From Vulcanimicrobiota bacterium (GTDB taxonomy: Bacteria; Vulcanimicrobiota; Vulcanimicrobiia; Vulcanimicrobiales; Vulcanimicrobiaceae): a stretch of DNA of 64,000 nucleotides. The stretch covers positions 512,001 to 576,000 of the forward strand of contig CAVZQC010000004.1 of NCBI GenBank assembly GCA_963777315.1, given 5' to 3'. The translations under genes and the position numbers were made by a program. Below, in pieces: positions 30,195-57,833 of this stretch; within the stretch, counting starts at the first letter, position 1; each line of letters opens with the position of its first letter. The notes beneath the pieces are model-generated. The model was not told where the DNA came from. It saw only the letters and a program-made list of their open reading frames with translations, and did no database searches.

Positions 30195-30593
30195 ATGGTT
30201 TTCGATCATCTTGGAATTTTCGTGCATAGCATTGAGGACGGCCAACGTAAACTCGAGTCGATTTTGCCGATACGCTCGTGGGGCAAAGTGTTTGATGACG
30301 ATATCTTGCATGTGCGCGTATGCTTCGGCCTGGATGAATCGGGACTTCGCTACGAGCTCGTTGCGCCGTTCGGTTCACCCAATCCGGTTTCCGGCGTGCT
30401 TGCCGGGCGCAAAAACATTCTCAATCACGTAGCCTACCGAGTTCCCGACATTGCAGCCGCTTCACGGGCGCTTCGCAGCTCCGGTAGCGTGCCGATTGCT
30501 CCGCCCAAGCCGGCGGTCGCATTCGGCGGCGCGTTGGTAGCGTTTTTCCTGACGGCATTGGGTTTTATCATTGAATTGGTGGAAGAGCGATAG
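30195..30593 (+). CDS. VOC/glyoxalase-family protein (methylmalonyl-CoA epimerase-like)
   Basis: FDHLGIFV, YELVAP, NHVAYRV, PKPAVAFGG, IIELVE. Confidence 0.82.
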   Translation: MVFDHLGIFVHSIEDGQRKLESILPIRSWGKVFDDDILHVRVCFGLDESGLRYELVAPFGSPNPVSGVLAGRKNILNHVAYRVPDIAAASRALRSSGSVPIAPPKPAVAFGGALVAFFLTALGFIIELVEER

Positions 30594-31587: not shown

Positions 31588-31720
31588 AGATCGCAACGTC
31601 TGATTGTACGCACCCTATAACGGAGGCGTTAGGGCCCGCAGGCCCGCTCTATGTGAGACCATGGGCCGCACAGGAGCATCGGCCTTCACGCCTCGAACAG
31701 CAGCGAGCGGTGAGCCGGCG

Positions 31721-33007: not shown

Positions 33008-33010
33008 CGT

Positions 33011-34144: not shown

Positions 34145-34386
34145 TGCCTTAGCATGCCCCCTTCGAAAGGTACGGATCAACCCTAAAAGCGCCTGGTCGT
34201 GCTAAGTCTTGTGCCCTATCCATCCGGCCGAAGACCGCCTGTGTGGGCGGCTTGCGTCGTCCAATGGCTCTCCGGCGGGGTGCCATGTCCTCACAAGCGG
34301 CGTTGGGCCGATTCCATTTTCGACGGGAACCATCACAGATTTATCGCGCGTGAATTGGCCCGTCGTTTCGAAGGTGTGCGAAACGC

Positions 34387-35472: not shown

Positions 35473-35542
35473 GTGCCGTTGTCGTTCCGTACGTTCGAGC
35501 GGAAACATTCAGCGCTCTAAACCCCTGCGGCGATAAGGGCGC

Positions 35543-35571
35543 AAAAAGGGCGGCCGTAACGCCGCCCTTTT
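35543..35571 (-). terminator. intrinsic terminator (bidirectional-type)
   Basis: AAAAA-GGGCGGC-cgtaac-GCCGCCC-TTTT downstream of 35591..38071. Confidence 0.8.
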
Positions 35572-35590
35572 CGTCTCGCCGGTTGGGCAC

Positions 35591-38071: not shown

Positions 38072-38192
38072 GAGTCTCCTAAAAAGAGCAAAAGTGCCAC
38101 GGAACCGGCTCTCCCCTGGTCGCCGTCGCTCATGGTGCTTTTGTCATCGGCATCTTCCAAAAAAAATTCTTATGAGTCAGTAAAGCGGGCGT

Positions 38193-38228
38193 AAAAAAAG
38201 ACCGCTGCTTAACACAGCGGTCTTTTTT
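38193..38228 (-). terminator. intrinsic terminator (bidirectional-type)
   Basis: A7-GACCGCTG-cttaaca-CAGCGGTC-T6. Confidence 0.85.
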
Positions 38229-38251
38229 GCGGGCCTTTCGGACTATGAGAG

Positions 38252-40637: not shown

Positions 40638-40892
40638 GTGGTCCTCCCCAAACCATACGGCGACGGCCCGCGATATACACATCGCGCGACGTCTCCGAAC
40701 TTACGTGGTGATGAGACTGAAAGCCCGGATCGTAATCGGCGATTCCAGGCCGTCTCAACGGTGTTCAATTGTCGGAGCGACAGGATGCCGCTCTTTGCGC
40801 AGGGCCTCCGAGCCGGAGGCATACCTCCTCCCTTATCTCGTCTTTAAGTAGACGCCGCGCTTCCGCGACCCTGCCGCTCAAGGGAGCGTTCG

Positions 40893-42066
40893 TTAATGAA
40901 TCAAACCTGAACTATACAAAACGGCATCACGCAGACATGCGACCACGCGCCTCACGTCGCTTTCCAGCATGCCGGGATAGAGCGGGAGGGACATCAGCCG
41001 CTGCCAAATGCCGTCGCTCACGGGCATGGGCGCATGCGGGCGGTCCCGGTACCACGAAAACGTATGCGAGGGTATGTAGTGCACGCTCGTGCCGATGCGC
41101 GCTGCACGCAGCGCTTCGATCGCGCGATCGCGCATCGCGCGCCCTCCATTGCCGACCTCTATGGGAAAGAAACACCAACTATGCCGGTCTGCATCGTTCA
41201 TGCGGCCAAGTGCTGCGGGACGAACATTTTCCAGGCCGGCGAGCAATTCGCAGTACAACGCTGCTAAAGTCCTTCGCTTTGCCTGCAGTTCGTCAAGTCG
41301 AGCTGAACTGAGACTGGGCCAGCGCGGCCAAGACGTCCGGCATGTTGCATTTATAGCCGCTGGCGATGATATCGTACTGCCAAGGGTTGTTGGCTTCGTA
41401 GCGCTTGTAGGCGTCGCGCGTCATGCCGTGCAGAGAGTGGATTCGCACCGTATCGGCGACTGCGTCGTCGTTGGTCACGAACATGCCGCCTTCAGCGGAC
41501 GTGACGTTCTTGGTCGCATAGAAGCTGTAAGCGGCTCCGGCGCTCCGCTTCCCGGCGGCTTCCCCCGCGTCGAGCATCCCCGTGCAGAGAGCGGCGTCTT
41601 CGATCACCGCTATCCCACGCGGCTGCGCGAATGCAAGGATGTCGGCAATGCGAGCGGGCCGGCCCGCATAGTGCATCGCCATGATCGCGGTCGTTTTGCC
41701 GGTCACGAGCGGGGCGATCGTCTCGACGCTCAGGCACAACGTCGAAGGATCGACGTCGCAAAACACCGGCGTAGCGCCCAGATGTTCCACGCACTCCGCC
41801 CCGGCCACAAAAGACAGCGAGGGGAGAATCACCTCGTCCCCGGAGGTCACCCCAACCGCAATCAGGCCCAGAAGCAAACCCGACGTGCAGCTGTTCAGCG
41901 CGATGGCGTGCTTGACGCCGCACAGTGCCGCAAATTGCTCTTCAAGCGCTACCGTTCGCGCCCCGGTCGTCAGCCAGCCGTTTCGCAAACATTCGACGAC
42001 GGCGGCGATGTCCTCGTCGTTGAGATCGGGACGATAGTACGGAAGAAAACCTTCAGGCGCGGGCAC
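40893..42066 (-). CDS. DegT/DnrJ/EryC1/StrS sugar aminotransferase (apparent +1 frameshift at ~41305)
   Basis: GWLTTG, NSCTSGL, IEDAA, SFYATKNVTSAEGG, SVHYIP, SLPLYP. Confidence 0.9.
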
Positions 42067-43456
42067 GGACTGCCGGTTGGGCGTTTCGCGGCACGTCGTA
42101 CAACGCAACGCTGCGAAGAAGCGCCATCATGATAAACGCCTCCCACAGATACTTGTACCACAACATATCGACGCTCATCGCTCCCACGAACAGTCCGATG
42201 CAGGCTGCTTCGAGCGCAATGCGCAGATCGTACAGACGGTGCGCGGGTCCTATCGGGCGAAGCATGAGCAGTTGCGAGCCCCATCCCCACAGCACGAGCA
42301 CGAGCCCTACCAGCCCGAATTCCACGCCCGATTGAAGCAAGAGGTTGTGTGCGGGACGCGCCCATTTCGCCGCGTATGCTTGAAAGATGTTCAGGTACTG
42401 AGCGTCGTACGCGGACTCGAAGTTTCCGATGCCGGCACCCACCAGCCAGTGGTGTTTAAACGCCGCAAAACCCACCGACCAAAGCGGGAACCTGCCGGCT
42501 CCCTGTGAGGTAAATGCCGTCCCGAACCGGTCCCAAATCGAGGTGTTCAGCAGCAGTCCGGCTGCAAGCGCTATGCCCACAATCGCGAACATTTGAGCGC
42601 GGTGCCTGCTTCGAATGAAAAAGTAGATAAAGATTGCGCCCAGACCGAGAAACGCTCCGCGCGACGAAGCAAAGAAGTACGCCGCTAAGAGGAGACCGAC
42701 GCAACCGAAATAGAGCGCTTTCTTCATCGACCTCGAGGTGCGCAAAGCTAAACCTATTGCAATCGCCGTCGGCAATGCCAGCGCGTTGGCAAAATGATTG
42801 GGATCGATGAAGTCGTCGCCGACCTGGATCATGAGCCGCTGGCCCGTTCCCATCAAATCGCTGGGAGGATTCAAATGGTAGTAGTAGGCGCCGTAAGCCG
42901 CGGCCAGCACGCCGCCCAAAAGCACCGCCTTGAGAATGCTCCCGAAGTCCGACGCCGAGACTTTAACGCTCGCCAAAATGAAGTACAGGCCGATGACCAT
43001 CGCATAGGTGGGATATTTGGACGCCGCCATATTCGGATCGATCGCCCAATAGATCGTTGCCGCCGCCCAAACCAGTAGTGCGAGCCAAATAACGGCTGCG
43101 CGCGGAGGCGATATGAATTGACGGGTTCTCAGCGCATGCAGGGCCACGGCAAGAGCCGATAAACCGCCGAGCAGTTTGGTTATCGTGCCGTAGCTTGATA
43201 CCGCCATCACGTTGTCGAACGGCAGCAGAAGCACGAACAAGCCAAACGGAAATATAATTGGCCGGGTAAAGAAAAAATACAGTCCGAGCGGACTGACGAC
43301 CAGTGCGACGGCGAGCACCAAACCGAGTTTCGTGCCTCCGACGCTCGCCATTGCCGCGAGTGCCGCCAGCAAAACCAGCGCTGTTCCGATGGCGGCCAAC
43401 AGGAATTGCTGCTGCTTGCCCGGCTCTTGCCAGCGCGCCGAAAGCGCGTTCAGCAT
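42053..43456 (-). CDS. O-antigen ligase / Wzy-like polymerase
   Basis: Many TMs, DPNHFA, SRGAF, GRFPLW, GAGIGNF, AHNLLLQSGVEFG. Confidence 0.85.
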   Translation of the reverse strand: MLNALSARWQEPGKQQQFLLAAIGTALVLLAALAAMASVGGTKLGLVLAVALVVSPLGLYFFFTRPIIFPFGLFVLLLPFDNVMAVSSYGTITKLLGGLSALAVALHALRTRQFISPPRAAVIWLALLVWAAATIYWAIDPNMAASKYPTYAMVIGLYFILASVKVSASDFGSILKAVLLGGVLAAAYGAYYYHLNPPSDLMGTGQRLMIQVGDDFIDPNHFANALALPTAIAIGLALRTSRSMKKALYFGCVGLLLAAYFFASSRGAFLGLGAIFIYFFIRSRHRAQMFAIVGIALAAGLLLNTSIWDRFGTAFTSQGAGRFPLWSVGFAAFKHHWLVGAGIGNFESAYDAQYLNIFQAYAAKWARPAHNLLLQSGVEFGLVGLVLVLWGWGSQLLMLRPIGPAHRLYDLRIALEAACIGLFVGAMSVDMLWYKYLWEAFIMMALLRSVALYDVPRNAQPAVRARA

Positions 43457-44538
43457 GCCGCCGCCTCAGGCATGCGTTGCGACGGGAACGAGCACAGCGC
43501 CGTTGCGATCAGCTGCGCGGCATTTCCGTGCCCGTACACCGGTCGGGGCGCCGATGAAGGCGCCGGACGCGACGCGGCAGCAGCGATGCGAACCGGGTCG
43601 GTGCCGGCGAGCACGTTCCAGCCGTCCTCGAGCGTTTCGACCCACTCAGTGTTTTCGCGCAGCGTAACGCAAGGTATGCCCAGCGCGTACGCTTCCTTCT
43701 GCATGCCGCCCGAATCCGTCAGCACGAGCGAAGCGTCGCGCAGCAGCGCAACCATGGTTTTGTACGAGAGCGGATCGACGAGACGCACGTTAGGGGCACT
43801 TTGCGGCGTGATGAACCGTTCGGCCAGCGGGCGCGTGCGCGGATGCGCGGGAAAAACGAGCGGCATTGGGATGCGGTGCAAAGCTGCGACAATGTCTTCG
43901 AATTGCGCGGCGTCGTCGGTATTGCTCGCGCGGTGCACGGTCATCACCCCGTAAGGGCCGCTTATGCCTGCATCCCGCAAGAGCTGCAGCGGTACGCCGG
44001 CATCGGCCGCGGTCGCAAGCAGCAAGTCGACCATCACGTCGCCCGTCACTTCGATCGAAGCGGTGCTGCCTTCCAGCCGCAATTGCTCCGCCGAGCCCTG
44101 CGTAGGGGCAAAACAGATCGCGGCTAAGCGATCGGTGACGATGCGATTGACTTCTTCGGGCATGGACATGTCGAACGAGCGCAGCCCGGCCTCGACGTGC
44201 GCGACCGGAATGGTGAGTTTGGCTGCGACCAGCGCTCCGGCCAGCGTGCTGTTGGTATCGCCGTAGACCAGCACGAGATCGGGCCGCTGCTCTTGCATCA
44301 CCGGTTCCAGGCGCTTCATCATTTCTGCAGTCTGCCAGGCGTGCGATCCGGACCCGACTTCCAGGAAGACGTCGGGTTTGGCCAAGCCGAGCTCGTCGAA
44401 AAAGACCTGCGACATGCCGTAATCGTAGTGCTGGCCCGTATGAACCAGAACCTCACGGCAGCGCCCGGCCAGCGCGCGGCTGACGACGGCGGCCTTGATG
44501 AACTGCGGGCGCGCGCCGATTACCGTGAGCAGCTTCAC
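43450..44538 (-). CDS. wecB: UDP-N-acetylglucosamine 2-epimerase (non-hydrolysing; WecB/WbpI-like)
   Basis: GARPQFIK, HTGQHYD, GDTNST, HVEAGLRS, MPEEVNR, TDSGG.QKEA. Confidence 0.92.
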   Translation of the reverse strand: MKLLTVIGARPQFIKAAVVSRALAGRCREVLVHTGQHYDYGMSQVFFDELGLAKPDVFLEVGSGSHAWQTAEMMKRLEPVMQEQRPDLVLVYGDTNSTLAGALVAAKLTIPVAHVEAGLRSFDMSMPEEVNRIVTDRLAAICFAPTQGSAEQLRLEGSTASIEVTGDVMVDLLLATAADAGVPLQLLRDAGISGPYGVMTVHRASNTDDAAQFEDIVAALHRIPMPLVFPAHPRTRPLAERFITPQSAPNVRLVDPLSYKTMVALLRDASLVLTDSGGMQKEAYALGIPCVTLRENTEWVETLEDGWNVLAGTDPVRIAAAASRPAPSSAPRPVYGHGNAAQLIATALCSFPSQRMPEAAAC

Positions 44539-45653
44539 GCCGGAACCATCAACTCCGCGCGCAATGCCTGTGCAACCGCAGATTGCTCCTCGGGCGCGAT
44601 TTCGGGGAACATCGGCAGCGAGAGCACCTCTTGTGCGGCGCGTTCGGAATGGGGGAAATCTCCTGCGCGGTAGCCCAAATCGGCATGAACCGCTTGCACG
44701 TGCAGCGGAACGGGATAGTAGATCATCGTCTGCACGCCGCGCCGCCCGAGCGCAGCCTGGACGTCGTCGCGATTGTTCACCCTGACGGTGTACTGATGAT
44801 AGACGCAGTACGAGCCGGCCGGCTCGGACGGCAAATGCACGCCCTGAACGTCGCCGAGCAACTCCGCGTACCGCGCGGCAACGTTGCGCCGAGCTTGCGT
44901 CCAGCGCGCCAGATGCGGCAACTTCACGCGTAGAATCGCAGCTTGCACTTCGTCCAGCCGGCTGTTGACGCCCAGACACTCGTGGTGGTATTTGATGCGC
45001 CCGCCGTGCACGCGCAGCATGCGCGCTTTTTCTGCCAGCGCGTCGTCACCGGTGACGATCATGCCGCCGTCGCCGTACGCCCCCAAGTTTTTCGACGGAA
45101 AGAAACTGAACGCGCCGAAATCTCCGAACGTGCCGACGTCGCGGCCGGCGATCCTCGCTCCGATCGCTTGCGCGCAATCCTCCACGACCGCTACGCCGTG
45201 GCGGCGCGCGATCTCCATGATCTCGGGCATGGGAGCAGGACATCCGTACAAATGAATCGGCAGAATGGCGCGCGTTCGCGGAGTGATGGCGGCTTCTACT
45301 GCTGCCGGGCTGATGTTGTACGTCTGCGGATCGATGTCTGCAAAGACCGGACGCGCGCCCACGATGCCGATTGCTTCGGTCGTGGCCACGAACGTAAACG
45401 GCGCGGTGATGACTTCATCGCCCGGCCCCACGCCCAGGGCCCGCAGCGCCAAATGCAGCGCATCGGTGCCCGAGTTGAGCGCGACGGTGTGCTTGACGTT
45501 CAAATACGAGGCCAATTCCGACTCCAGTGCCTTGACGTTGGGGCCCATGATGAAATGGCCGCCTTCGAAGACCGCAAGCACCGCCGCATCGATCTCGTCC
45601 TTGAGTTCGTGGTACTGCCGCCGCAGATCCAAAATCGGGATGGTGGGATTCAT
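44535..45653 (-). CDS. DegT-family aminotransferase (WbpE-like)
   Basis: NSGTDAL, EDCAQAIG, SFFPSKNLGAYGDGG, NSRLDEVQAA. Confidence 0.92.
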   Translation of the reverse strand: MNPTIPILDLRRQYHELKDEIDAAVLAVFEGGHFIMGPNVKALESELASYLNVKHTVALNSGTDALHLALRALGVGPGDEVITAPFTFVATTEAIGIVGARPVFADIDPQTYNISPAAVEAAITPRTRAILPIHLYGCPAPMPEIMEIARRHGVAVVEDCAQAIGARIAGRDVGTFGDFGAFSFFPSKNLGAYGDGGMIVTGDDALAEKARMLRVHGGRIKYHHECLGVNSRLDEVQAAILRVKLPHLARWTQARRNVAARYAELLGDVQGVHLPSEPAGSYCVYHQYTVRVNNRDDVQAALGRRGVQTMIYYPVPLHVQAVHADLGYRAGDFPHSERAAQEVLSLPMFPEIAPEEQSAVAQALRAELMVPA

Positions 45654-46250
45654 GCCGTCCTCCGCACCGAGGAGCCGTCCTTACGGTACCGTTTGCCGCA
45701 TTCGGCACATTGCGCGCTGTCGCCGTCGAAAGCTGAGCTTCACGCCGCATTCGCACGCGTACCCCGCAACGCGAGCGGGTGAACCGTAGGCAAGGGCGTA
45801 CGGCGGAATATCTTTGGTAACGACGGCGCCGGCGCCGATGAACGCGTACTCTCCAATCGTATTGCCGCAAACGATCGTCGCGTTGGCGCCGATCGACGCG
45901 CCTTTCTTGACCAGTGTCTTCGCGTAGTCCGCCGACGTATTGCGTGGATGGCCCGAGCGCGGCGTGGTGACGTTGGTAAAGACCATGCTTGGACCGCAGA
46001 ACACTTCGTCCTCGAGCACGACGCCCTCGTAGATCGAGACGTTGTTCTGGATTTTCACGCCGTTGCCGATGCGCACGTTCGGCGCGACGACCACGTTCTG
46101 GCCCAGGGAGCAGCGTTCTCCGATCTCGGCGCCCGCCATGACGTGGCTGAAGTGCCAAATCTTCGTGCCGGCTCCGATCGTGCACGGCTCGTCGACATAG
46201 GCGGACTCGTGGATGAAGTATTCTGTGCGCTCTCGGACTGAGTTGTTCAT
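45650..46250 (-). CDS. UDP-amino-uronic acid N-acetyltransferase (WbpD-like; apparent +1 frameshift at ~45730)
   Basis: TKIWHFSHV, KIQNNVSIYEG, CGPSMVFTN..PRS; removing one T restores CECG...CAECGKRY and an ATGA overlap with the next gene. Confidence 0.88.
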
Positions 46251-46263
46251 GAAGCTTCCTTAA

Positions 46264-47628
46264 TTACAATAAGATGACGTGATCGCGTGGGCCTTTGACG
46301 GATCTCGTGGCGTTGCGCGTGTCGACGAGCAGGCGCGAATGGCGAGTGACGAACTCCCAGTCGATCACCGAATGGTCGGTTAAAATCAGCACCGCGTCGG
46401 CGGCGTTCAGCGCTTCGGCCGTCATGGGGGTCGAGTGCCGCAGCTTGCCGTGCAGATCCTGAAAGCGGGAGACCAACGGATCGTGGTAGTCCACGATCGC
46501 ACCGGCTGCATCGAACAAATCCATGATGCGCAGCACGGGCGATTCGCGCCAGTCCTCGACGTCCTTTTTATAGGCCGCCCCGATGATGAGTATCTTCGCG
46601 TCGCGCAGTGCCAGGCCTGCGCAATTAAGCGCACGCATGACTTTATCGCGCACGAAATACGGCATCGCGTCGTTTATCTCGCCGGCGAGCTCGATGAACC
46701 GCACGTGAAAGTCGTACTGGCGCACCTTCCACGACAAATAGTACGGGTCGAGTGGAATGCAGTGGCCGCCCACGCCGGGACCGGGCTCGAAGCGCATGAT
46801 GCCGAAGGGCTTGGTCGCGGCGGCATCGATGACTTCCCACATGTTGATATTCAACTTGTCGCAGAGCAGCGTCATCTCGTTGACGAGCGCGATATTGACT
46901 GCTCTGAACGTGTTTTCGAAAACCTTCGTCATTTCGGCCAGCCGCGGCGTATCGACTTCAACGACTTGCACGATCGTCTGATCGTAAAAGACCTTTGCCG
47001 CCGAGCGGCAGCGCGGCGTGACGCCGCCTACGACCTTACTGGTGTTTCGCGTCGTATACCGCTTGTTGCCGGGATCGACGCGCTCGGGTGAAAAGGCGAG
47101 GAAATAGTCGGTTCCGACGACCAGGCCCTTCTGCGCGAGGATGGCCAACAGCACTTCTTCGGTCGTTCCAGGGTACGTCGTGCTTTCCAAGCAGATCAGT
47201 TGGCCCGGTCGAAGCACTTGGGCGATTTGCGCCGCCACGCGCGCGATGTGCGAAATGTCCGGTTCTTTGTTGGGGCTAAGCGGCGTTGGAACGCAGATGG
47301 CGATAACGTCGCATTCCGCCAGCCGGTCGAAATCGTTGGTCGCCTGCAGGATGCCTGAGCCCACGCAACGCGCGAGATCGGCGTCGGCGACGTCGCGAAT
47401 GTAATTGAACCCGTGATTGACCTGATCGACGCGAATCACGTTGCGATCGAATCCCAGTACCGGAAATCCAACCTTCGCCTTCTCTACCGCCAGCGGCAAG
47501 CCGACGTAGCCGATGCCGACGACTCCGACGACTGCGGAATGGTCTTTGAGCGATCGCACCAGCTTGCCGAACGCATCGTCGGCGAATGCTTGAGCGATTT
47601 CGGGAAGCGCGGTCGAGGCGATATTCAT
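46264..47628 (-). CDS. UDP-N-acetylhexosamine 6-dehydrogenase (WbpA-like)
   Basis: GIGYVGLP, ICVPTP, ESTTYPGTT, SPERVDPG, GPGVGGHCIPLDP. Confidence 0.92.
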   Translation of the reverse strand: MNIASTALPEIAQAFADDAFGKLVRSLKDHSAVVGVVGIGYVGLPLAVEKAKVGFPVLGFDRNVIRVDQVNHGFNYIRDVADADLARCVGSGILQATNDFDRLAECDVIAICVPTPLSPNKEPDISHIARVAAQIAQVLRPGQLICLESTTYPGTTEEVLLAILAQKGLVVGTDYFLAFSPERVDPGNKRYTTRNTSKVVGGVTPRCRSAAKVFYDQTIVQVVEVDTPRLAEMTKVFENTFRAVNIALVNEMTLLCDKLNINMWEVIDAAATKPFGIMRFEPGPGVGGHCIPLDPYYLSWKVRQYDFHVRFIELAGEINDAMPYFVRDKVMRALNCAGLALRDAKILIIGAAYKKDVEDWRESPVLRIMDLFDAAGAIVDYHDPLVSRFQDLHGKLRHSTPMTAEALNAADAVLILTDHSVIDWEFVTRHSRLLVDTRNATRSVKGPRDHVILL

Positions 47629-49247
47629 AGCGCGGCGGCCTTCTGCGGCGCGGTGACGTTGACGTCGGCGGTCGCAGGAACGTCGATGGTGCCTTGTAAC
47701 TGCCGCTCGCCGATTTCGCGAACTCGGACGCGCTCCTTGGAAGCAAAACCGGGAATGAGCGAATCGACCACGCCGATCACGGATGCCGCGCTGTCCGATT
47801 TGATGGCCGCGCGCAGTTCGCGTATGCGGTCGTGCACCAGATCGTAGTCGACGCGTTCTTGCCGGGCGATCAGCACGCCCGAACGATTCGTCCTCGACAT
47901 GCCCTCCTGGGTCGTGAGCAACTGCTCGTGGAGCTTCTCTCCCGGGCGCACGCCGGTGTAGGTGATATTGATGTCTTGATACGGAACCAGCCCCAACAGG
48001 CGCACGAAGGCTTCGGCGAGCTTCGTAATCGAAATCGGTTCGCCCATTTCGAGCACTACGACTTCTCCGTCGCGGCCCATGCTGGTTGCCTCCAGCACCA
48101 GCGAAACGGCCTCGGGAATGCTCATGAAGTACCGGCGCATGTCGCGGTGCGTGATCGTCAGCGGGCCGCCGGTATCGATTTGCTGTTTGAAGACCGACAG
48201 CACGCTGCCGCGGCTTCCCAGCACGTTGCCGAAGCGCACCGACACGAACTCCGTCGACGTGCGGTTGGCAAAAGACTGGCAGATCAGTTCCGCGATGCGC
48301 TTGGTGGCTCCCATTACGCTGCTTGGCTCGACGGCCTTATCGGTGGACAACAGCACGAATTTCGAGCAGCCGAAGGCTGCGGCCGCCAGCGCGACGACGT
48401 GAGTTCCTAGGATATTATTGCGAGCCGCCTCACAGATATTGTTTTCGAGAATCGGAACGTGCTTGTGCGCGGCGGCATGGAAGACCAGGTACGGACGATA
48501 GCGCGAGAAGACGCTGCGGATGCGGTCGTAGTCGGCGACGTCGGCCAAGATGAGCTGCGTGCGCGAGAAGTGCATCTGTATTCGCAACTCTTCTTGAATG
48601 GCGAACAAACTGTTCTCTCCGTGTCCGAGCAGCAGCAGCAACTTGGGATTAAAACCGGCGAGTTGGCGGCAGATTTCGGAACCGATGGAACCGCCTGCGC
48701 CCGTTACCAGTATGACTTGGTTTTCGATGAACCGGCCGACCTGCGACAGATCGACGGGTATAGCGTGGCGCTGAAGCAGATCTTCCAGGCCCAAGTCGCA
48801 GATGAGCGGCAAATTGACGTCATTCGAAACCAGCGCCGGCGTGCTGTGCAACGTCTTGAGAATCGGTTTGTTCGACGCTTTGGAGACGCACGCCTGAACC
48901 TTCATCGCCGTTTCCGCCGAAGCGCGATCGATCATCACGCATTGAATGCGGCGCGAGTGAATGATCTCGTTTAGCCGGTCGAGCGGTCCGAGCACGGGGA
49001 CCGAGCCGCTGGTATCGTCGATTTTTTCCGAAACGCGCCCGACGATCGCATAGCCGAAGCTCGTGTTCGCGCGAAAAAACCGGCGCAGTATCTCGCACGA
49101 GCGCGCGGGCCCGATGACGATCGTGCGCAGGGTCTGCGGTGCGCGTGTGGGTTTGCGGCGAGGCGTACGGGCCAGCAGCAGCGCGGCAATCAGGACGATT
49201 GCGGCAAAAGCCAGGATCAGCAGCGGCGTCGCTAGTTCTGCGTTCAC
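47625..49247 (-). CDS. UDP-GlcNAc 4,6-dehydratase (CapD/PglF/WbpM-like)
   Basis: TGAGGSIGSE, HAAAHKHVP, STDKAV, MGATK, RFGNVLGSRGS, RPGEKLHE. Confidence 0.92.
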   Translation of the reverse strand: MNAELATPLLILAFAAIVLIAALLLARTPRRKPTRAPQTLRTIVIGPARSCEILRRFFRANTSFGYAIVGRVSEKIDDTSGSVPVLGPLDRLNEIIHSRRIQCVMIDRASAETAMKVQACVSKASNKPILKTLHSTPALVSNDVNLPLICDLGLEDLLQRHAIPVDLSQVGRFIENQVILVTGAGGSIGSEICRQLAGFNPKLLLLLGHGENSLFAIQEELRIQMHFSRTQLILADVADYDRIRSVFSRYRPYLVFHAAAHKHVPILENNICEAARNNILGTHVVALAAAAFGCSKFVLLSTDKAVEPSSVMGATKRIAELICQSFANRTSTEFVSVRFGNVLGSRGSVLSVFKQQIDTGGPLTITHRDMRRYFMSIPEAVSLVLEATSMGRDGEVVVLEMGEPISITKLAEAFVRLLGLVPYQDINITYTGVRPGEKLHEQLLTTQEGMSRTNRSGVLIARQERVDYDLVHDRIRELRAAIKSDSAASVIGVVDSLIPGFASKERVRVREIGERQLQGTIDVPATADVNVTAPQKAAAL

Positions 49248-49386
49248 AATATTCCGTCGCGGGCAAGGAGATGGTAGGAAAACTGTACTCCAGGAGCGCG
49301 CCGGCGGCCAAGTCCGGTCCTGCCCGGAAAATTTGGGAACCTGGACTTATCGCCCGGTGCCGGTCGGCCCCTTAGAAGACTGCGCA

Positions 49387-50274
49387 TTAGGCTTTTTTGG
49401 AAACCGAGCGCAGATGCGATGCGCGAATTGCGCTGCCCAGCACTTTGTCGATGGCGAAGACGTCACGCCGCCCGTCGATGATGCTGTGCCTGCCCGTGCT
49501 GTTGAGCGTATGCATGCCCAAGGCATAGGGCTCGGCTGCCGCTGCCGTCGCTACGGGCTGCTCGTGGAAATCTTTGGTCGTCAGCTCGTCGATACGGTTG
49601 ATGGTAACCGCTTGACCGTATGCCGACGTGCAGTCTTGAGCCGGCCGGTACATGACGCCATTGTGTTCGAAGGGCCGGCCGGCGGGGCGTGCGGACCGTC
49701 TATCGGTTCGCAGGGGATTGCGCGGATGGGCAGTCCACGGGCCGACCGGCGCTTGCGCGTGCCACAAGGAAATCGTCTCGTTTTCGTGCGGACGCAGGGT
49801 GCCCAGCATCCACCATGTGCCGCCCGAAGCAAATATCGTCGGATCGACGATGGGCTCGTCGAGTATTCGTGCAACGTGCTCCCAGCGGCTGGGAAAATCG
49901 GTCATGCGGTAAATGTCGGCGCCACCGGATTCACGCGATTCCGGTACGCAAAAGATGCCGCGGTTCCATTCGAAGACGCATGGATACGACAGGTGGTACG
50001 GCGTTTCGATGGCCGGACCGCAGTCGATCACTTTGTCGCCGGCGATCTCGAGCGCGGCGATGTGCGCTTTACCTTTCATATATTCAAACCGCTCGCACAG
50101 AACGGCAGTGCGCTGCCCGTACTCGAACACGAACGGATCGGCGAGAAACGTGCCGTACCTGGGCGGATCGAACCACCGGATCGACGGGACGAAATCCGTC
50201 TGCAAGAACGACGCTGCAGTGCCGTTGACCACCAGCCCGAGATTCCACTCGACCCGGTTGAACAGCCGTTTCAC
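49387..50274 (-). CDS. GINT1-N-like beta-propeller protein (putative glycoside hydrolase fold)
   Basis: EWNLG, FLADPF, HLSYP, VPES, VDPTI, HPRNP, RPAG, YRPAQDC, GMHTL. Confidence 0.75.
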   Translation of the reverse strand: MKRLFNRVEWNLGLVVNGTAASFLQTDFVPSIRWFDPPRYGTFLADPFVFEYGQRTAVLCERFEYMKGKAHIAALEIAGDKVIDCGPAIETPYHLSYPCVFEWNRGIFCVPESRESGGADIYRMTDFPSRWEHVARILDEPIVDPTIFASGGTWWMLGTLRPHENETISLWHAQAPVGPWTAHPRNPLRTDRRSARPAGRPFEHNGVMYRPAQDCTSAYGQAVTINRIDELTTKDFHEQPVATAAAAEPYALGMHTLNSTGRHSIIDGRRDVFAIDKVLGSAIRASHLRSVSKKA

Positions 50275-50276
50275 CG

Positions 50277-51287
50277 TCAGCTCGAATATGGCGCGGCTAC
50301 CGGCGGGGTCAAATCGTGCAAGTTGTACTGCGCCGCGTCGTCGGCCAAAGCCAGCGCCCGCACGACCTCGACCCCTTCGCGAACGTCCGTGGGGGGAATC
50401 TTCTGCGTTTGAATCGCGTGCAGGAAAGCCAGCATCTCGGCTTTGAGCGGTTCGGCCTTTTCGAACGGAATGCTGATCGGGGCCTCGCTCCACGTCTGAG
50501 CGACGTTGTCGTTCAGCCGTGCGCCGCAAGGCGTGAGTGTGAGCTGGCCGCCGGACCGTGAATCTTCGAAACTCAAAATGCCTTCCGTACCGAACACGTC
50601 GACTCGCGACGATTTGTTCGCGTCCAGCCATCCGACCTCGATGTGCGCGGAACGTCCGCTGCCGAACAAGTAATCGACGTAAGCGAAATCCGACACGCCG
50701 GGAACCACGTGCCCGTGGTGCTGCGCGCGTGCCGCAATGGGGAACTCATCGAAGATCGCCAGCATCAGCGCCACGTCGTGCGGAGCGAAGCTCCACCACA
50801 CGTTTTCCTGCGTGCGCACTCGGCCCAAGCTGAGCCGGCGGGAACGCACGTGCAGCAATTTGCCGATGCGCCCGTCCCGCAGTGCGCTCAGCAGCGCGGT
50901 GATGCCCGGATGGTACAGCAGCAGATGACCGACGAAGACCAAGCGCTGAAACGAACGGGCAAGCCGGGCGATTTCGACCGCGTCGTCGACGGTCATCGCG
51001 AGCGGCTTTTCCACGAAGACCTGTTTGCCGTGGCAGATCGCGGCCAGCGCGAGCTTTGCATGCGTGTCCGCCGGAGATGCAATAACGACCGCGTCGACGT
51101 CGCTCTGCAGCAGCATGTCCGGATCCCTGAACACCATGACGTCCTTGTACGTGGCCGTCACGCTTCTCAAGCGCTCGGTGTCGGCGTCGCAAACCGCGGC
51201 CAGTACGCCCAGTTCGGCGCAAACCCGCACGAGTTTTTCGCCCCAGTAACCGGCGCCGATAACGCCGATGCGCGGTCCGTTTTTCAT
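50277..51287 (-). CDS. Gfo/Idh/MocA oxidoreductase (WbpB-like)
   Basis: IGAGYWG, VFVEKPLA, VGHLLLYHP, SFAPHDV. Confidence 0.9.
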   Translation of the reverse strand: MKNGPRIGVIGAGYWGEKLVRVCAELGVLAAVCDADTERLRSVTATYKDVMVFRDPDMLLQSDVDAVVIASPADTHAKLALAAICHGKQVFVEKPLAMTVDDAVEIARLARSFQRLVFVGHLLLYHPGITALLSALRDGRIGKLLHVRSRRLSLGRVRTQENVWWSFAPHDVALMLAIFDEFPIAARAQHHGHVVPGVSDFAYVDYLFGSGRSAHIEVGWLDANKSSRVDVFGTEGILSFEDSRSGGQLTLTPCGARLNDNVAQTWSEAPISIPFEKAEPLKAEMLAFLHAIQTQKIPPTDVREGVEVVRALALADDAAQYNLHDLTPPVAAPYSS

Positions 51288-52642
51288 AACAGCGTTACGG
51301 TATCGGGGCGGTCCTCCACCCCGCGAGTCGCGTTGCGCGTGTCGATGACGCGCGCGGCATGCCGGGCGACCAGCGCATAGTCGACCGTGGAGTGGTCGGT
51401 CAGGATCACGACGCAGTCGGCTTTGGCCAGCGTCGCTTCATCGAGCGCCACGGAACTCCGCGCTCTGCCGTTGTCGTCGGTAAATGCGGGAACGAAGGGA
51501 TCGTGATAGTCGACGAAGGCGCCTTCGTCCTCGAGCAGTTCGATCGTCCGAATCGACGGGGATTCGCGCCAGTCTTCGATGTCCTTTTTATACGCCACGC
51601 CCAGCGCTAGAATTCGCGCGTCTTTGAGCGGACGTCCCACCTCGTTGAGCAGCCGTGCAACTTTTTCGCGCACGAAATACGGCATGCGCCGGTTGATTTC
51701 GCCGGCAAGCTCGATGAAGCGAACGTGAAAGTCGAATTCACGCGCCTTCCACGCCAAATAAAAGGGATCCAGCGGTATGCAGTGGCCGCCTACACCCGGA
51801 CCGGGATCGAAGCGCATCATCCCGAACGGCTTGGTGGCCGCTGCATCGATGACGTCCCAAATACTGATGCCGAGGCGATCGCACAGTAGCGCCATCTCGT
51901 TCACGAGTGCAATGTTGACGGCGCGAAACGTGTTCTCGAAAACCTTGGTCATCTCGGCGACGCGCGGCGAAGACACTTGCACGACGTTGAGAATGGTCTG
52001 CGAATAGAACGCCGTGCCGACTTCCAAACATACGGGGGTCACTCCGCCCACGACCTTGTTCGTGTTTTTGGTCGAATAGCGCTTGTTTCCGGGATCGACG
52101 CGCTCGGGCGAGAAGCACAAAAAGAAATCGCGTCCGACCACGAGGCCGGTTTGCGCGAAGAGCGGCAGCAAAATTTCTTCCGTCGTTCCCGGATACGTCG
52201 TGCTTTCCAAACAGATCAACTGGCCCGGCCGCAACGCTTCGGCGACTTCCGCGCCGACGTTGCGGATGTACGATACGTCCGGATCCAGGTTTTTGGTCAG
52301 CGGCGTAGGCACGCAGATCACGATGACGTCGCAGCGGGACAGCGTAGAGAAGTCGGTCGTGCCGGAGAGCTGCTTTTTCTCCACTACGGAAGCCAGCTCG
52401 GCGTCGGACACGTCGCGGATGTAGTTGCGCCCTTCATTGACTTGGGCGATGCGGTTCTCGCTGCGATCGTAGGCGACGACTTTGAAACCGACCTTTGCCT
52501 TTTCGACCGCCAGAGGCAGCCCGACATAGCCGACGCCGGCGACGCCCACCGTGGCGGTGCGCCGCTCGATGAGATCTTTTAGAGCGCGGGCGTGATCGGC
52601 GGTTGCGACGCTGTCGCCGTAATTGGCGGTACTGATGGGCAC
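51284..52642 (-). CDS. second UDP-N-acetylhexosamine 6-dehydrogenase (WbpA-like)
   Basis: GVGYVGLP, ICVPTP, SPERVDPG, GGHCIPLDP; close paralog of 46264..47628. Confidence 0.92.
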   Translation of the reverse strand: MPISTANYGDSVATADHARALKDLIERRTATVGVAGVGYVGLPLAVEKAKVGFKVVAYDRSENRIAQVNEGRNYIRDVSDAELASVVEKKQLSGTTDFSTLSRCDVIVICVPTPLTKNLDPDVSYIRNVGAEVAEALRPGQLICLESTTYPGTTEEILLPLFAQTGLVVGRDFFLCFSPERVDPGNKRYSTKNTNKVVGGVTPVCLEVGTAFYSQTILNVVQVSSPRVAEMTKVFENTFRAVNIALVNEMALLCDRLGISIWDVIDAAATKPFGMMRFDPGPGVGGHCIPLDPFYLAWKAREFDFHVRFIELAGEINRRMPYFVREKVARLLNEVGRPLKDARILALGVAYKKDIEDWRESPSIRTIELLEDEGAFVDYHDPFVPAFTDDNGRARSSVALDEATLAKADCVVILTDHSTVDYALVARHAARVIDTRNATRGVEDRPDTVTLL

Positions 52643-53900: not shown

Positions 53901-54461
53901 ATGACCAAGATGCTTCCTTGGCGCGCCTTGCGCGGCGTCTTCCTCAAACGGTTCGGAGCGGAAAACTTCCGCAGACGTTTTCCCGGGGTCGTCTTCGGCG
54001 AAGACGTGATCGTGCGTGGCCCGGAAAAGTTCTTTCCCGGCTCAGGCTGCTCTATCGACATACGCGCATATCTGAACTGCGCCGGGGGTGCGTGGAACGG
54101 CTACTCGGGCTTCATTAAATTGGGCGACAACTGTGAGATCGGCGCCAACTGCGTACTCAACGGCGCCGGAGGCATCACCCTGGGGAACGACGTGCATTTG
54201 GGACCCCTCGTGACGATTTCCGCAAATCAACTGTATCGCGACGTACGCAGCGACGATCCGGCGACGCACATGCAGTTCTTGCCGGTAACGATACAGGATG
54301 GTGCGCTCATCGGTCCGTCGACGTGCATTGCTCCCGGCGTGGTGATCGGACGCCGTGCCATCGTGGGCGCCGGCTCGGCAGTTCTCACCGACATTCCACC
54401 GGACTGCGTCGCGCAGGGCGTCCCCGCACGAATCGTCTTGAAAAAGAACGACTCTCGGTAA
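53901..54461 (+). CDS. hexapeptide-repeat acyltransferase
   Basis: IKLGDNCEIG, GGITLGNDV, PVTIQDGALIG, IVGAGSAV, GVPAR. Confidence 0.88.
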   Translation: MTKMLPWRALRGVFLKRFGAENFRRRFPGVVFGEDVIVRGPEKFFPGSGCSIDIRAYLNCAGGAWNGYSGFIKLGDNCEIGANCVLNGAGGITLGNDVHLGPLVTISANQLYRDVRSDDPATHMQFLPVTIQDGALIGPSTCIAPGVVIGRRAIVGAGSAVLTDIPPDCVAQGVPARIVLKKNDSR

Positions 54462-54466
54462 AGCTG

Positions 54467-54700
54467 ATGAGCGAGATAGAACTTGCGCAGGTGACGCAGG
54501 TCATCGAGCGCGTGGGTGCACTGGCGGGATTGGACGCGGATGCCGATTTTTACGACGCGGGCTTCAGTTCGATCAACGCGCTGATGCTGCTCATGGAGCT
54601 CGAGGAGCGTTTCGCGGTGCAAATACCGGACGACCGCTTCGTGAATGCGCGCACGCCGCGCTCGCTGTACGAATTGCTCGCATCGTTGCGGAACGGCTAA
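54467..54700 (+). CDS. carrier protein (ACP/PCP-like)
   Basis: 77 aa, DFYDAGFSS (non-canonical GxSS phosphopantetheine site), LEERFAVQIPD. Confidence 0.85.
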   Translation: MSEIELAQVTQVIERVGALAGLDADADFYDAGFSSINALMLLMELEERFAVQIPDDRFVNARTPRSLYELLASLRNG

Positions 54701-54705
54701 ACGAC

Positions 54706-55896
54706 ATGGCCAAGTTCAGCGTGCAGCTTCCGGCGCCGGCCAACGAAATGGCGTGCGAAGAGATCCGCAAACAGCTGCCGTTTCTCTCCAAAGCGATCTC
54801 GCAGGTTCGCTTTTCCGACGACGGGCAGCGGGTGGAATTCGAAGCGAGCGGTGCCAACGCGGAGGAACTTACCCCGCAGGTGCAAGGGCTGGCTCGTCGG
54901 GTGCAGCGTGCCCTGCAGCATGTCGAGCGTAAGGTGATTTACCGAACCTCCACCTGCGAGAACGTCGCATTCGCCGGTGAAAGCGACTCGAGCGGCATCA
55001 CGGTCTTGGGCATGGGTCAAGTCGCCTTACAGGGGTTGCCGCTGCAGCTGTTTCGCTACTTCGATCGCGTCTTCGAATCGTTCGGCTCGCGGTGGGGCGC
55101 TGTGCCGATAGCCGTACCGGCGTTGATTCCGACGTCCGTGCTGGCGCGCTGCGACTACTTCGGATCGTTTCCGCACAACGTGACGTTCGCGGCGCATTTG
55201 CGGGAAGACGCGCACGTGATCGACGGCTTCCGATCGCGCCATCAAGCCGTGACGCAGCTGGACGCGCAGGCGCTGGCGGACATGGAACGCCCGGAGGCAT
55301 GTCTCTCTCCGGCACTGTGCTATCACGTGTATCACCTTTGTGAAAACCGGCGTATGCCGGATGCCGCGTCGGCATACGGCGTATGCGGCAAGTGCTTCCG
55401 GTACGAATCCGCCAACACGTCCGACCTGCGCAGGCTATGGGACTTCACCTTGCGCGAGATCGTCTTTGCCGGCGGCCGAGAAGAGGTGCTGCACGCACGG
55501 CAAGAGTCCGTAGAAATGATGGAGCGGTTTTTGGAAGAGCATCGCCTGGCCGGCGAAATCCGCACCGCCAGCGATCCGTTCTTCGTCGCTCCCGACGCGT
55601 TGCCGAAGACGTATTTCCAGCTCAGCTCCGAAGCAAAGCTCGAAGTATCGCTCATGCTGCCGGGTGGTGAGCGCACGGCGGTCTCGTCGCACAATTACCA
55701 TTCCGACTTCTTCGGTCACGCGTTCGGCATTACGCTCGACAGCGGCGCGCATATGCACAGCGTCTGCGTGGGGTTTGGTTTGGAGCGGTGGGTGTACGCG
55801 TTTTTGCGACAGCACGGCAGCGATGCGTCGGCATGGCCGCATGTCGTGCGCGCCGCACCCGAATTTTCGCAAAGCCGCAATGAACGCGCGGATTGA
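54706..55896 (+). CDS. atypical SerRS-like amino acid--[carrier protein] ligase
   Basis: YFGSFPH, LSPALCYHVY, CFRYE..RLWDFTLREIV (class II motif 2), ASDPFF, SHNYHSDFFG, HSVCVGFGLERW (motif 3); adjacent carrier protein. Confidence 0.82.
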   Translation: MAKFSVQLPAPANEMACEEIRKQLPFLSKAISQVRFSDDGQRVEFEASGANAEELTPQVQGLARRVQRALQHVERKVIYRTSTCENVAFAGESDSSGITVLGMGQVALQGLPLQLFRYFDRVFESFGSRWGAVPIAVPALIPTSVLARCDYFGSFPHNVTFAAHLREDAHVIDGFRSRHQAVTQLDAQALADMERPEACLSPALCYHVYHLCENRRMPDAASAYGVCGKCFRYESANTSDLRRLWDFTLREIVFAGGREEVLHARQESVEMMERFLEEHRLAGEIRTASDPFFVAPDALPKTYFQLSSEAKLEVSLMLPGGERTAVSSHNYHSDFFGHAFGITLDSGAHMHSVCVGFGLERWVYAFLRQHGSDASAWPHVVRAAPEFSQSRNERAD

Positions 55897-56830
55897 CGTA
55901 GTCGACGCCGCAGCGTTTGCACCGCAAGCCGCGCAGATTCTGAACGATGCATGGCCCGCGCCGGCCCTGCACTATACGCCCGAGTACGTCCGCTGGCAGC
56001 TGACCTTTCCCGGGAATCCGGCGCCGGTGGCATTGGCTGCGTATGACGACTCCGAAGCTATCGGATTCATCGCCTCGACGCCGCGCCGGATGCGGCTGGG
56101 ACCGACCGCACAAGAGGTTGCAGTCGTTTCGTTCGTCGCCGTGCTCGCGGACCGCCAGCGCCGCGGAATCGCGGCGGCGCTCTATGCGCGCCTGCTTTCC
56201 CAGCTCCAGACGTCCGGGCCGCTGCTGACGTTTGCCGTTCCGGATTCAAGCGGCGAACGCGCGCTTCTGCGCGCGTACTCGCACGGCGGCTACACCGTCT
56301 CGCAACTGGGTTCATATCCGACGTTTTCGTATCTCGATCGCAGCACAGGGAACGATTTGCCGCAGCAGCGCGCGTCATCGCAGTATTCCGAACTGAACCC
56401 CGTCATCCAGGCTTGTGCGCGCGATGGTTCGATCTTGTGGAGCGATCCTTCCGCCGAGCAGTTTGCGCACTACCTTGCCGATCCGCGATCGCGCCGTCTG
56501 CTCGTCGTGTGTCGGGCGTCGGAAACGGGCGCTGCCTGGGCGCTGCAAATGGCGGTCAGAACGGCGCGAAGCGTCCAGACCGTAACGGCGCTCGAGACGC
56601 TGTACGTACCCGGCGGCGATGGGGGCTCGCTGCCGCAGCTGCTGCATTCTGCGGCAGGACTTTACAACGCGCGGCAGCCGGCGCGTTTGGTCAACGTCCC
56701 GAACGCATTCGGGCTGGACGCGCGCCGCTTCGGGTTGCGGCAAACGGGCGTCGGTTTCCGCGCTTACTTGTGCACGCTGCGCGCACACCCGTTCCAAACG
56801 GCGGCGGGCACGAATTTGGAGATCACGTAA
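55880..56830 (+). CDS. GNAT-family acyltransferase
   Basis: YVRWQL, VVSFVAV..RQRRGIAAALY (motif A); start overlaps the ligase end. Confidence 0.75.
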   Translation: MNARIDVVDAAAFAPQAAQILNDAWPAPALHYTPEYVRWQLTFPGNPAPVALAAYDDSEAIGFIASTPRRMRLGPTAQEVAVVSFVAVLADRQRRGIAAALYARLLSQLQTSGPLLTFAVPDSSGERALLRAYSHGGYTVSQLGSYPTFSYLDRSTGNDLPQQRASSQYSELNPVIQACARDGSILWSDPSAEQFAHYLADPRSRRLLVVCRASETGAAWALQMAVRTARSVQTVTALETLYVPGGDGGSLPQLLHSAAGLYNARQPARLVNVPNAFGLDARRFGLRQTGVGFRAYLCTLRAHPFQTAAGTNLEIT

Positions 56831-56834
56831 CGCG

Positions 56835-57833
56835 CTAACGCCGCAAACGGGCCGCAATTGCGCGATACGCGGCAAACGTGCGCCGCTCGATCACCTGCGT
56901 GACGTACGGCACGCGCACCGCTCCCAATCGATCTTTGAATTGCTGCACGCCTTCGAGCCCCGAACTGGAACCCATATTGTACCAGCGAGTACCCCGGTTT
57001 GCCGCCGCGTGAAGCAACGCGACGTTGAGCGCGTTGCTGGGGCGCGCGTTGGCATACTCCGCACGCATGGCGGCGCTCCAAAAGTACATCTCCTGCGAAC
57101 CAAACAGCACGACGCCGCCGGCGGCCGCAACGCCGTCACAATCCGCAAGCCAAATTTCCACGTCGCTCCCACCGTGGCGAACCACCGCTTCGATCAAATT
57201 TTTGGGAATCGTCGGTTCGTTCAAGCCCCACCGCTGCGCCGACTGGAGGAGGATGCCGTAGTACGCGTCCACCGCGCCGGCGGCGTCGGCCTTGTACGGC
57301 CGCACCCCGCGGCGAACCGCTTGACCCGCCATTCGGCGGCTGCGTCCATCCATTCGCGCTATCGCGGCATCGGCACCGTCCGACAAATCGATGATCGACG
57401 TCTCATCGGCATGCCTTTCGCCGCCGAGGTCTACGCCGGCTTGATCGCACTGCGGCCACAACGTAACGCGAAAGCTGTCGTATTCTCGGCGCGCGACGTG
57501 CGCGAGCGCGCACGCAGCCTGCGCAGCTTGCGCAAGCGCTCCGTTTTCTTCGTTTTGGATGACGATCGATTCGTTCCAGGGCAGCGCTTCGCCGGCGCGC
57601 AACCGCAGCAGGCTCGTTCTCGCGCACAGCGCCGGCACGATAACGCGCGCGCCGTCGGAGAGCCGGCAGCGCAGCGGTGCCGGTTGGTATTGCGGGAACG
57701 CATCGCACCAGGCGGCGGACCATGCCGGCCGAGCGGTAAACGTCGGCGCGGGAAATCGTTCGTCGAACCGGCGCCATTCATTCGGCGCCAGGGGTTCCGC
57801 CTTGAGGACGCGCAAGGGCTGCGACGCGCTCAT
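56835..57833 (-). CDS. GNAT (Acetyltransf_6/FemAB-like) protein
   Basis: RRMAGQAVRRGV, AAGGVVL, RPSNAL, YNMGSS..LEGVQQFKDRLGA. Confidence 0.8.
   Translation of the reverse strand: MSASQPLRVLKAEPLAPNEWRRFDERFPAPTFTARPAWSAAWCDAFPQYQPAPLRCRLSDGARVIVPALCARTSLLRLRAGEALPWNESIVIQNEENGALAQAAQAACALAHVARREYDSFRVTLWPQCDQAGVDLGGERHADETSIIDLSDGADAAIARMDGRSRRMAGQAVRRGVRPYKADAAGAVDAYYGILLQSAQRWGLNEPTIPKNLIEAVVRHGGSDVEIWLADCDGVAAAGGVVLFGSQEMYFWSAAMRAEYANARPSNALNVALLHAAANRGTRWYNMGSSSGLEGVQQFKDRLGAVRVPYVTQVIERRTFAAYRAIAARLRR

Follow-up and report, generated by a model that had tools for sequence, protein, structure and literature searches.

A cassette pairing a long-form amino acid:[carrier protein] ligase with two acyltransferases at the edge of a Vulcanimicrobiota polysaccharide locus: a candidate tRNA-free route to aminoacylated surface sugars

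What does a relative of seryl-tRNA synthetase (SerRS) do when it is encoded among a carrier protein and two acyltransferases beside a polysaccharide locus? The question is raised by a stretch of 64,000 nucleotides, here called the window, from a Vulcanimicrobiota bacterium (GenBank assembly GCA_963777315.1, contig CAVZQC010000004.1, positions 512,001 to 576,000). A compact operon of four genes had been recognized in it in an original prediction made from the letters alone, and all of its open reading frames (ORFs) were found: a left-handed beta-helix (LbH, hexapeptide) acyltransferase of 186 amino acids (aa) (53901..54461, + strand; Pfam Hexapep, E 7.5e-14), an aminoacyl carrier protein of 77 aa with its phosphopantetheine site at Ser35 in the motif DAGFSS (54467..54700, +; PP-binding, E 1.7e-12), a long-form amino acid:[carrier protein] ligase of 396 aa (54706..55896, +; tRNA-synt_2b, E 3e-5), and a tandem GNAT of the N-myristoyltransferase (NMT) type, 316 aa in length (55880..56830, +; Pfam Acetyltransf_1 and weakly NMT). 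Spacing is operon-like: the first two gaps measure 5 nt each, and the ligase and GNAT genes overlap by 17 nt. The cassette is a real, conserved functional unit, and its ligase very likely loads a small amino acid onto the carrier.

Conservation of the unit is evident from 78 homologous GTDB loci collected by an alignment-based scan, a single-protein GTDB scan having given none. These loci, cited by their L numbers where they must be told apart, span Acidobacteriota, Planctomycetota, Myxococcota, Gemmatimonadota, Armatimonadota and others. The carrier was located by tblastn in 73 of them, an LbH in 62 and the GNAT in 59, the absences all coming from incomplete metagenome-assembled genomes and being read as 'not found' rather than 'absent'. 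The parts also occur in a single chain: among seven longer ligase homologues, five are LbH-carrier-ligase-GNAT fusions in gene order, one of them a Chondromyces crocatus protein, and two are ligase-GNAT fusions. Ser35 is kept in 58/58 aligned carriers, and the PDB entries best matched by the carrier profile, 4h2w_C and Atu2571 (E 1e-8), represent the aminoacyl carrier that partners the Atu2573 ligase.

The ligase itself consists of an N-terminal beta-alpha-beta-beta-alpha domain of ~85 aa and a SerRS2-type class II core with predicted Zn ligands C205, E251 and C354; its 396 aa compare with about 510 aa for full-length methanogen-type SerRS. By sequence its closest PDB entry is Bll0957, a glycine:[carrier protein] ligase from Bradyrhizobium (E 2.6e-26), and methanogen SerRS comes next. 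Motifs 2 and 3, said in the original prediction to be kept, align with those of Bll0957 as CFRYE/RLWDFTLRE and CVGFGLER. The same holds for the candidate Zn ligands: the segments ALCYH, REI and SVCVG hold C205, E251 and C354, which are invariant in 40/40 aligned homologues and match the C/E/C of Bll0957, the role in Zn binding being predicted. An AlphaFold model of the ligase (pLDDT 80.7) superposes on 4h2w_B with Z 28.2 and a root-mean-square deviation (rmsd) of 2.6 over 264 aligned residues (VIA). VIA ranks Bll0957 first for the model, with SerRS2 only about 1 Z unit lower, and Foldseek ranks methanogen SerRS (SerRS2) first for the whole model. Against NCBIfam the ligase scores 143.7 bits with the amino acid:[carrier protein] ligase family PRK07080, under the cut-off of 357, and therefore belongs to a related subfamily rather than to the Bll0957 equivalogs; neither SerRS2 family is reached (PRK00960, 111.8 bits against a cut-off of 611; TIGR00415, 78 against 489.55). 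The genome encodes a canonical SerRS elsewhere, above its cut-off, as well as two phosphopantetheinyl transferases (PPTases). Together with the adjacent and fused carrier, these features argue for a SerRS2-derived enzyme that would charge the carrier rather than tRNA, as had been proposed.

Near-full-length homologues of the ligase number 668, and with an E-value limit of 0.001 there are 1,839 representatives. A tree was computed from 205 sequences over 281 columns, leaving out 14/16 Sorangium rows and short fragments and with a very distant canonical SerRS as root; in it the window ligase falls into a clade of 59 with a support of 0.996. Neither the short forms of the Bll0957 type nor the long forms of Streptomyces and Bacillus polyketide synthase/nonribosomal peptide synthetase (PKS/NRPS) clusters belong to this cassette clade. 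The phylogenetic comparison envisaged in the original prediction thus separates the ligase from the Bll0957 type, while its other half, the comparison with SerRS2, lies outside a tree that holds no SerRS2 sequence. Within the tree the window ligase nests among Acidobacteriota, whereas in its own phylum only 4/301 genomes have any ligase match and 2/301 a close one; because of this nesting and the sporadic occurrence, acquisition of the cassette by transfer is suggested.

The N-terminal extension of the ligase, previously estimated at ~100 aa, is a real and conserved domain, predicted with a pLDDT of 82.7, but it is not specific to the cassette. It is common to long forms outside it, including the PKS/NRPS-linked relatives, is missing from short forms, and its profile scores >10 bits in 63/127 distant representatives. 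No meaningful PDB sequence match was obtained, nor a Foldseek match with E below 0.001, and VIA returned generic ferredoxin/HMA-like arrangements only (best Z 8.1, rmsd 1.9, 69 aligned). SerRS2 is not in the top 50 fold matches, which does not exclude it beyond those 50, and the best ESM Atlas match, at 0.77, is a lead only. The domain may dock the carrier or be a remnant that once bound tRNA, the two roles considered in the original prediction. Other fusions occur among long-form ligases: P0192 has an N-terminal carrier-like region, recognized by eye and without a Pfam match, and P0209 an N-terminal BtrH_N domain. On Streptomyces plasmids (L089, L090) a long-form ligase lies amid acyl-CoA dehydrogenase, carrier, 3-hydroxyacyl-CoA dehydrogenase and acyltransferase genes in PKS/NRPS clusters, a layout typical of aminomalonyl/hydroxymalonyl extender cassettes. 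There the ligase may load serine; no paper on serine loading by a ligase of this type was found in the open-access literature.

Which of the two acyltransferases would then act on the charged carrier? The original prediction had the GNAT aminoacylate a sugar from the carrier and the LbH possibly acetyl-cap the product; the distribution of the genes and the features of the GNAT favour the reverse. The top PDB matches of the GNAT profile are NMTs (E 2.3e-9), with only the N-terminal 83 positions aligned and the second half not. By alignment count Y32, S84 and F85 correspond to Tyr192, Asn246 and Phe247 of human NMT1; in that enzyme these residues line the oxyanion hole and the Gly pocket, to which the C-terminal carboxylate also contributes (PMC7048800). 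The C-terminal end is in register in 42/43 GNAT members, as expected if the carboxylate serves as the base as in NMT. With the eukaryotic glycylpeptide N-myristoyltransferases the GNAT thus has in common the tandem arrangement, an FxYxxExLxW motif, the Tyr192/Phe247 equivalents and a fixed C-terminus, but it is a shorter protein, alignable only over those 83 positions (E 2e-9). Its CoA P-loop is intact (QRRGIA, fitting Q/R-x-x-G-x-G/A), and a strict P-loop is found in 25/43 members; the altered loop described for the carrier-dependent GNATs SbzI and FeeM (PMC11685415), a mark of that type, is not present in the window GNAT.

The GNAT is also the part that is lost or exchanged. It is missing in 18 loci, and a search of 13 of the genomes gave none in 10, short weak matches in 2 and a plausible match in 1, two positive controls being detected. 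In 5/158 loci (L004, L031, L113, L118, L153) a formyltransferase stands directly 3' of the ligase and there is no GNAT, swaps that fall at two or more tree positions at least, with GNAT-bearing sisters, and in three related contigs (L139-L141) the GNAT slot is empty. Because of this pattern, and of the NMT-like and CoA-loop-bearing character of the protein, the GNAT is likely an acyl-CoA-dependent N-capping enzyme.

The LbH is more persistent. A 240-aa, His-bearing LbH is the family form and occurs in 57/78 loci; 19 genomes were searched for the 21 loci without it, and 14 encode it, often just past the fetched flank, while 5 encode another LbH nearby. The window LbH, 64% identical to the LbH in the same slot of L003, is a non-orthologous stand-in for the family protein, no orthologue of which was found in the window genome (best E 4e-16, where orthologues reach about 1e-110). 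Since the LbH is near-obligate and the GNAT may be lost or swapped for a formyltransferase, the LbH is likely the carrier-dependent transferase of the capped amino acid. LbH enzymes can use carrier donors, as LpxA and LpxD do.

In the pathway that emerges, a small amino acid would be adenylated in an ATP- and Zn-dependent step and thioesterified to phosphopantetheine on Ser35, as homology to Bll0957 strongly implies, the carrier having presumably been primed by one of the two genomic PPTases. An N-cap, which the swaps suggest to be optional, could be acetyl added by the GNAT, formyl added by the formyltransferase in sister loci, or none. In the last step the LbH would attach the capped amino acid to a sugar of the surface polysaccharide encoded nearby, at an amine or a hydroxyl and while that sugar is nucleotide- or lipid-linked; here the sugar would most plausibly derive from a Wbp-like amino-uronate pathway. 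Taken as a whole, from loading by the ligase to transfer by the LbH, this proposal has slightly less than an even chance of being correct; if the rest of it holds, the division in which the GNAT caps and the LbH transfers is somewhat favoured.

The amino acid in question can be approached through the pocket of the ligase. The second residue past the motif-3 Cys is Ala in Bll0957 and Gly in both SerRS2 chains, and in the window ligase it is Gly356; Ala is found at this site in 67/76 matched locus sequences and in 102/119 top homologues, and Met249 is replaced by Leu in 6/8 Gly-type vs 0/47 Ala-type ligases. From Gly356 we infer Ala or Ser as the substrate here, and Gly as that of most relatives, which are Ala-type. 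The pocket rule reportedly goes back to an Ala281Gly mutagenesis study. Replacement of the family LbH coincides with the Ala-to-Gly change of the pocket in 5/6 cases, representing about three lineages.

As for the acceptor, a surface glycan is probable in this genome. Glycan markers were defined as profiles for glycosyltransferases, flippases, Wzy_C, Wzz, Wzm and sugar-pathway enzymes, identified by Pfam. Among non-Sorangium loci of at least 15 kb, 34/42 have at least one marker and 30/42 at least two, against 24/128 and 10/128 background tiles of the bacterium's own genome, a contrast that is inflated, the profiles having been built from the tested loci and the background being one genome. 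A set of 80 metagenome loci not used for the profiles includes 27 of at least 8 kb, of which 19 have at least one marker and 12 at least two. In the window, the Wzx/Wzy-type polysaccharide locus (8640..43456, by family scans) contains Wza-like and Wzc-like proteins, a flippase, priming and GT4 glycosyltransferases and a Wzy_C protein. It is followed by the Wbp-like genes (43453..52642, - strand), for two NDP-sugar dehydrogenases, a Gfo/Idh/MocA 3-dehydrogenase-like protein, a DegT aminotransferase, an LbH acetyltransferase, a UDP-GlcNAc 2-epimerase and a 4,6-dehydratase; a second aminotransferase/dehydratase pair is also present in the locus. These names rest on families and gene order, not on equivalog cut-offs, and a Wbp-like route to di-amino-uronates is a lead as the candidate source of the acceptor sugar.

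The cassette had been placed wholly inside this exopolysaccharide locus. It was found instead at the right edge of a ~45-kb Wzx/Wzy-type locus, pointing away from the sugar genes (at about 8.6-52.6 kb) and separated from them by an unrelated ORF (52874-53710), with clpX directly beyond it on the other side. Its nearest relative, L003, at 66%, has common neighbours that include clpX/clpP/tig. Promoter and terminator scans gave scores no higher than shuffles, and in GC and GC3 the cassette is no different from the neighbouring genes.

Apart from the incompleteness of the genomes behind the absences and the inflation of the marker contrast, several observations weigh against the proposed pathway. 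The cassette is sporadic in its phylum as well as peripheral to its locus, and the expectation that it would be linked to glycan loci, borne out in most long loci, fails elsewhere: there are no markers in 16/16 Sorangium loci or in 8/42 other long loci, and L005, L011, L023, L028 and L035 lie amid unrelated genes. For both the window LbH and the family LbH the closest named families are acetyl-CoA O-acetyltransferases, and the window LbH is without the D-x-x-G-H-P His loop and has no His at the family motif. On the side of the GNAT, the P-loop is not strict in 18/43 members, the GNAT is the part that is fused directly to the ligase, and a related tandem GNAT lies 3' of FkbH and a second carrier in L015/L016, as the family GNAT does in L006; because the glyceryl carrier loaded by FkbH has no amine to cap, such GNATs may take a carrier-borne donor. 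Finally, the co-variation of pocket and LbH is weakened by the metagenome loci, where 6 Gly-type ligases accompany the family LbH and 3 another LbH.

The opposite allocation of roles would have the tandem GNAT aminoacylate an amino sugar from the charged carrier, with the LbH using acetyl-CoA to acetylate either the amino acid or a hydroxyl of a sugar. Ligase-GNAT adjacency and fusion, the GNATs 3' of FkbH-carrier pairs, the resemblance of the LbH family to maltose/galactoside O-acetyltransferases, their His included, the existence of carrier-dependent GNATs such as SbzI and the degenerate P-loops all fit such an exchange of roles. It is nevertheless unlikely in view of the 12/13 searched genomes that keep ligase and carrier, lack a local GNAT and gave no GNAT orthologue, the formyltransferase swap in 5 loci, and the NMT-like Gly pocket and CoA loop. 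Alternatively, the chemistry of the favoured pathway may end on a membrane lipid or glycolipid, in an MprF- or AlmEFG-like change of surface charge, the glycan neighbours then reflecting shared envelope loci. An LPG_synthase_TM (MprF-flippase-like) gene is directly upstream of the cassette in all 16 Sorangium loci, which have no glycan markers, and in L026, the N-terminal extension of the family LbH is basic and amphipathic, and AlmEFG provides a precedent (PMC4278540). With no such membrane gene at the window cassette, and Wzx/Wzy/Wzm/glycosyltransferase genes around most other loci, a lipid acceptor is distinctly unlikely.

Two further explanations dispense with the modified envelope or with the carrier. 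Were the module to make a small secondary metabolite or an N-acyl amino acid, its place beside the polysaccharide genes would be a chance insertion, which its edge position and sporadic distribution would suit; distant long-form ligases do occur in Streptomyces and Bacillus PKS/NRPS clusters, and L027 precedes a 2810-aa assembly-line protein. The PKS/NRPS-linked relatives, however, fall outside the supported cassette clade, family scans around the cassette in the window found no genes for PKS/NRPS, exporters or thioesterases, and the glycan linkage recurs across phyla, making this explanation improbable. The ligase might instead be an additional SerRS, supplying charged tRNA to the adjacent FemAB/VimA-like transferase, with the N-terminal domain binding tRNA; this reading would agree with the Foldseek ranking, the presence of that domain, the FemAB-like neighbour and a Gly356 as in SerRS2. 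It is very hard to reconcile with a carrier adjacent in 73/78 loci and fused in 5 proteins, with a FemAB-like gene in 0/78, with the canonical SerRS of the genome and with an amino acid:[carrier protein] ligase family that outscores the SerRS2 families (144 vs 112 and 78 bits), and VIA puts Bll0957 first, if by only about 1 Z unit; a tRNA-charging role is extremely improbable.

The FemAB/VimA-like GNAT (56835..57833, - strand; Acetyltransf_6, E 4.5e-10; FemAB, E 9.6e-6) is present and convergent with the operon, as had been noted, but it was rejected as a member of the cassette, tblastn having located it in 0/78 related loci. Its own profile found no match in 158 loci, of which 8 have a different FemAB-like cluster, and it scores 38.3 bits with TIGR03019, under the cut-off of 260. 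On the minus strand its start runs into the stop of the GINT1-like gene that precedes it. Two paralogous GINT1_N-like beta-propeller proteins with 36% identity (49390-50274 and 57830-58822, both -) flank the cassette in the window and in 0/78 related loci. The ORF at 52874-53710 (-) is lipoprotein-like, is without a Pfam match, and also adjoins the cassette in L003.

Further genes of the window and of the related loci deserve mention. A second loader-carrier pair, an FkbH-like gene and a PP-binding carrier, lies at 27970-30090 (-); the FkbH-like gene is split over two frames near 29000, where relatives are single proteins of 570-590 aa, and the split may be an assembly indel. FkbH and a carrier adjoin the ligase cassette in 5/78 loci. 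Directly after the second carrier is a deacetylase-like gene (26478-27944, -) with a weak VimE match (E 4e-14). A D-glucuronyl C5-epimerase C-terminal domain (E 5e-43) is encoded within the polysaccharide locus at 30568-31596 (-), and a DegT aminotransferase at 41293-42108 (-) is shortened to about 260 aa, perhaps by a frameshift or assembly error. The same may apply to an ORF at 301-2535 (-) in which an aspartate carbamoyltransferase N-domain is fused with a dihydroorotase-like domain. Genes for tRNA-Gly and tRNA-Leu are located upstream of tig, at 62076-62243. In nine cassette loci (L024, L032, L034, L053, L055, L056, L059, L060, L073) there is an unnamed family of 350-400 aa with DHFEP/HLHH motifs, deacetylase-like by eye and with no Pfam or NCBIfam match. 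An AAC(3)-family acyltransferase with a carrier, by distant ligases or in a common glycan locus (L077, L078, L006), is a possible transferase partner.

How does the cassette relate to systems already described? The DltABCD system attaches a small amino acid to a polymer of the envelope independently of tRNA, using a ligase, a carrier and a transferase. In both the Dlt and the AlmEFG systems the ligases are adenylation-domain enzymes, and the transferases are of the LPLAT or MBOAT type. AlmEFG, which glycylates lipid A in V. cholerae, follows the same tRNA-free logic with a small amino acid (PMC4278540). The Dlt-like modification foreseen in the original prediction is alike in this logic and differs in its parts: the window cassette uses a class II aminoacyl-tRNA synthetase fold, an LbH and an NMT-like GNAT, and no AMP-binding or MBOAT family is found among the 41 window proteins scanned. 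The Wbp/Vim pathway of P. gingivalis and T. forsythia yields an N-seryl or N-glycyl di-amino-uronate through Wbp enzymes, the VimE deacetylase and the FemAB-like VimA (PMC7468200). Counterparts in the window are the Wbp-like genes, the FemAB-like gene and a gene with weak resemblance to VimE, but the last scores 51.9 bits against a cut-off of 440 and stands beside the FkbH carrier 26 kb away, and a carrier does not occur in the main text of PMC7468200.

Amino acid:[carrier protein] ligases acylate phosphopantetheine, not tRNA, and their biological role has been listed as unknown (PMC9437257, 2022; PMC5370406). With Bll0957 and Atu2573 (PDB 3MEY, 4H2S, 4H2W) the window ligase shares the SerRS2-derived core, the three Zn-ligand positions and an adjacent Atu2571-like carrier; it differs in being only about 30% identical, in its extra 85-aa N-terminal domain and in its separate clade. 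Their partners differ too, an acyl-CoA dehydrogenase, DUF1839 and GH2 standing in place of the LbH and the NMT-like GNAT. For a paralogous SerRS-carrier system, Iyer et al. 2010 predicted, in a note added in proof, that an amino acid is ligated to a cell-surface sugar derivative at its amine (PMC2922099). That prediction concerned the short-form operon, in which Atu2574 was proposed to be the ligase, and the note makes no mention of LbH, GNAT, formyltransferase swaps or fusions. No description of the four-part cassette was found in the open-access literature, subscription papers being outside the scope of the search. The enzyme class and the surface-sugar prediction for the short form are thus already known, whereas the LbH/GNAT cassette, the fusions and the swaps appear to be new.

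Extended from this genome to the family, the capping-and-transfer proposal becomes a somewhat more tentative one: a widespread four-part line in which an aminoacyl-tRNA synthetase fold would load the carrier, an NMT relative, swappable for a formyltransferase, would cap the amino acid, and an LbH would install it on surface glycans, with the Ala/Gly356 pocket switching the amino acid and the LbH partner varying along with it. If true, this would provide the first physiological role for the amino acid:[carrier protein] ligases and would explain how N-acyl-aminoacyl sugars of bacterial polysaccharides are made without tRNA. The cassette offers downstream enzymes, a likely class of acceptor and, in a cultured myxobacterium, a fusion of all parts in one chain, by which the role becomes testable with one protein. 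It also points to bacterial enzymes of the NMT fold, and the four-part fusion of myxobacteria would, if the proposal is correct, constitute one 1,100-aa enzyme.

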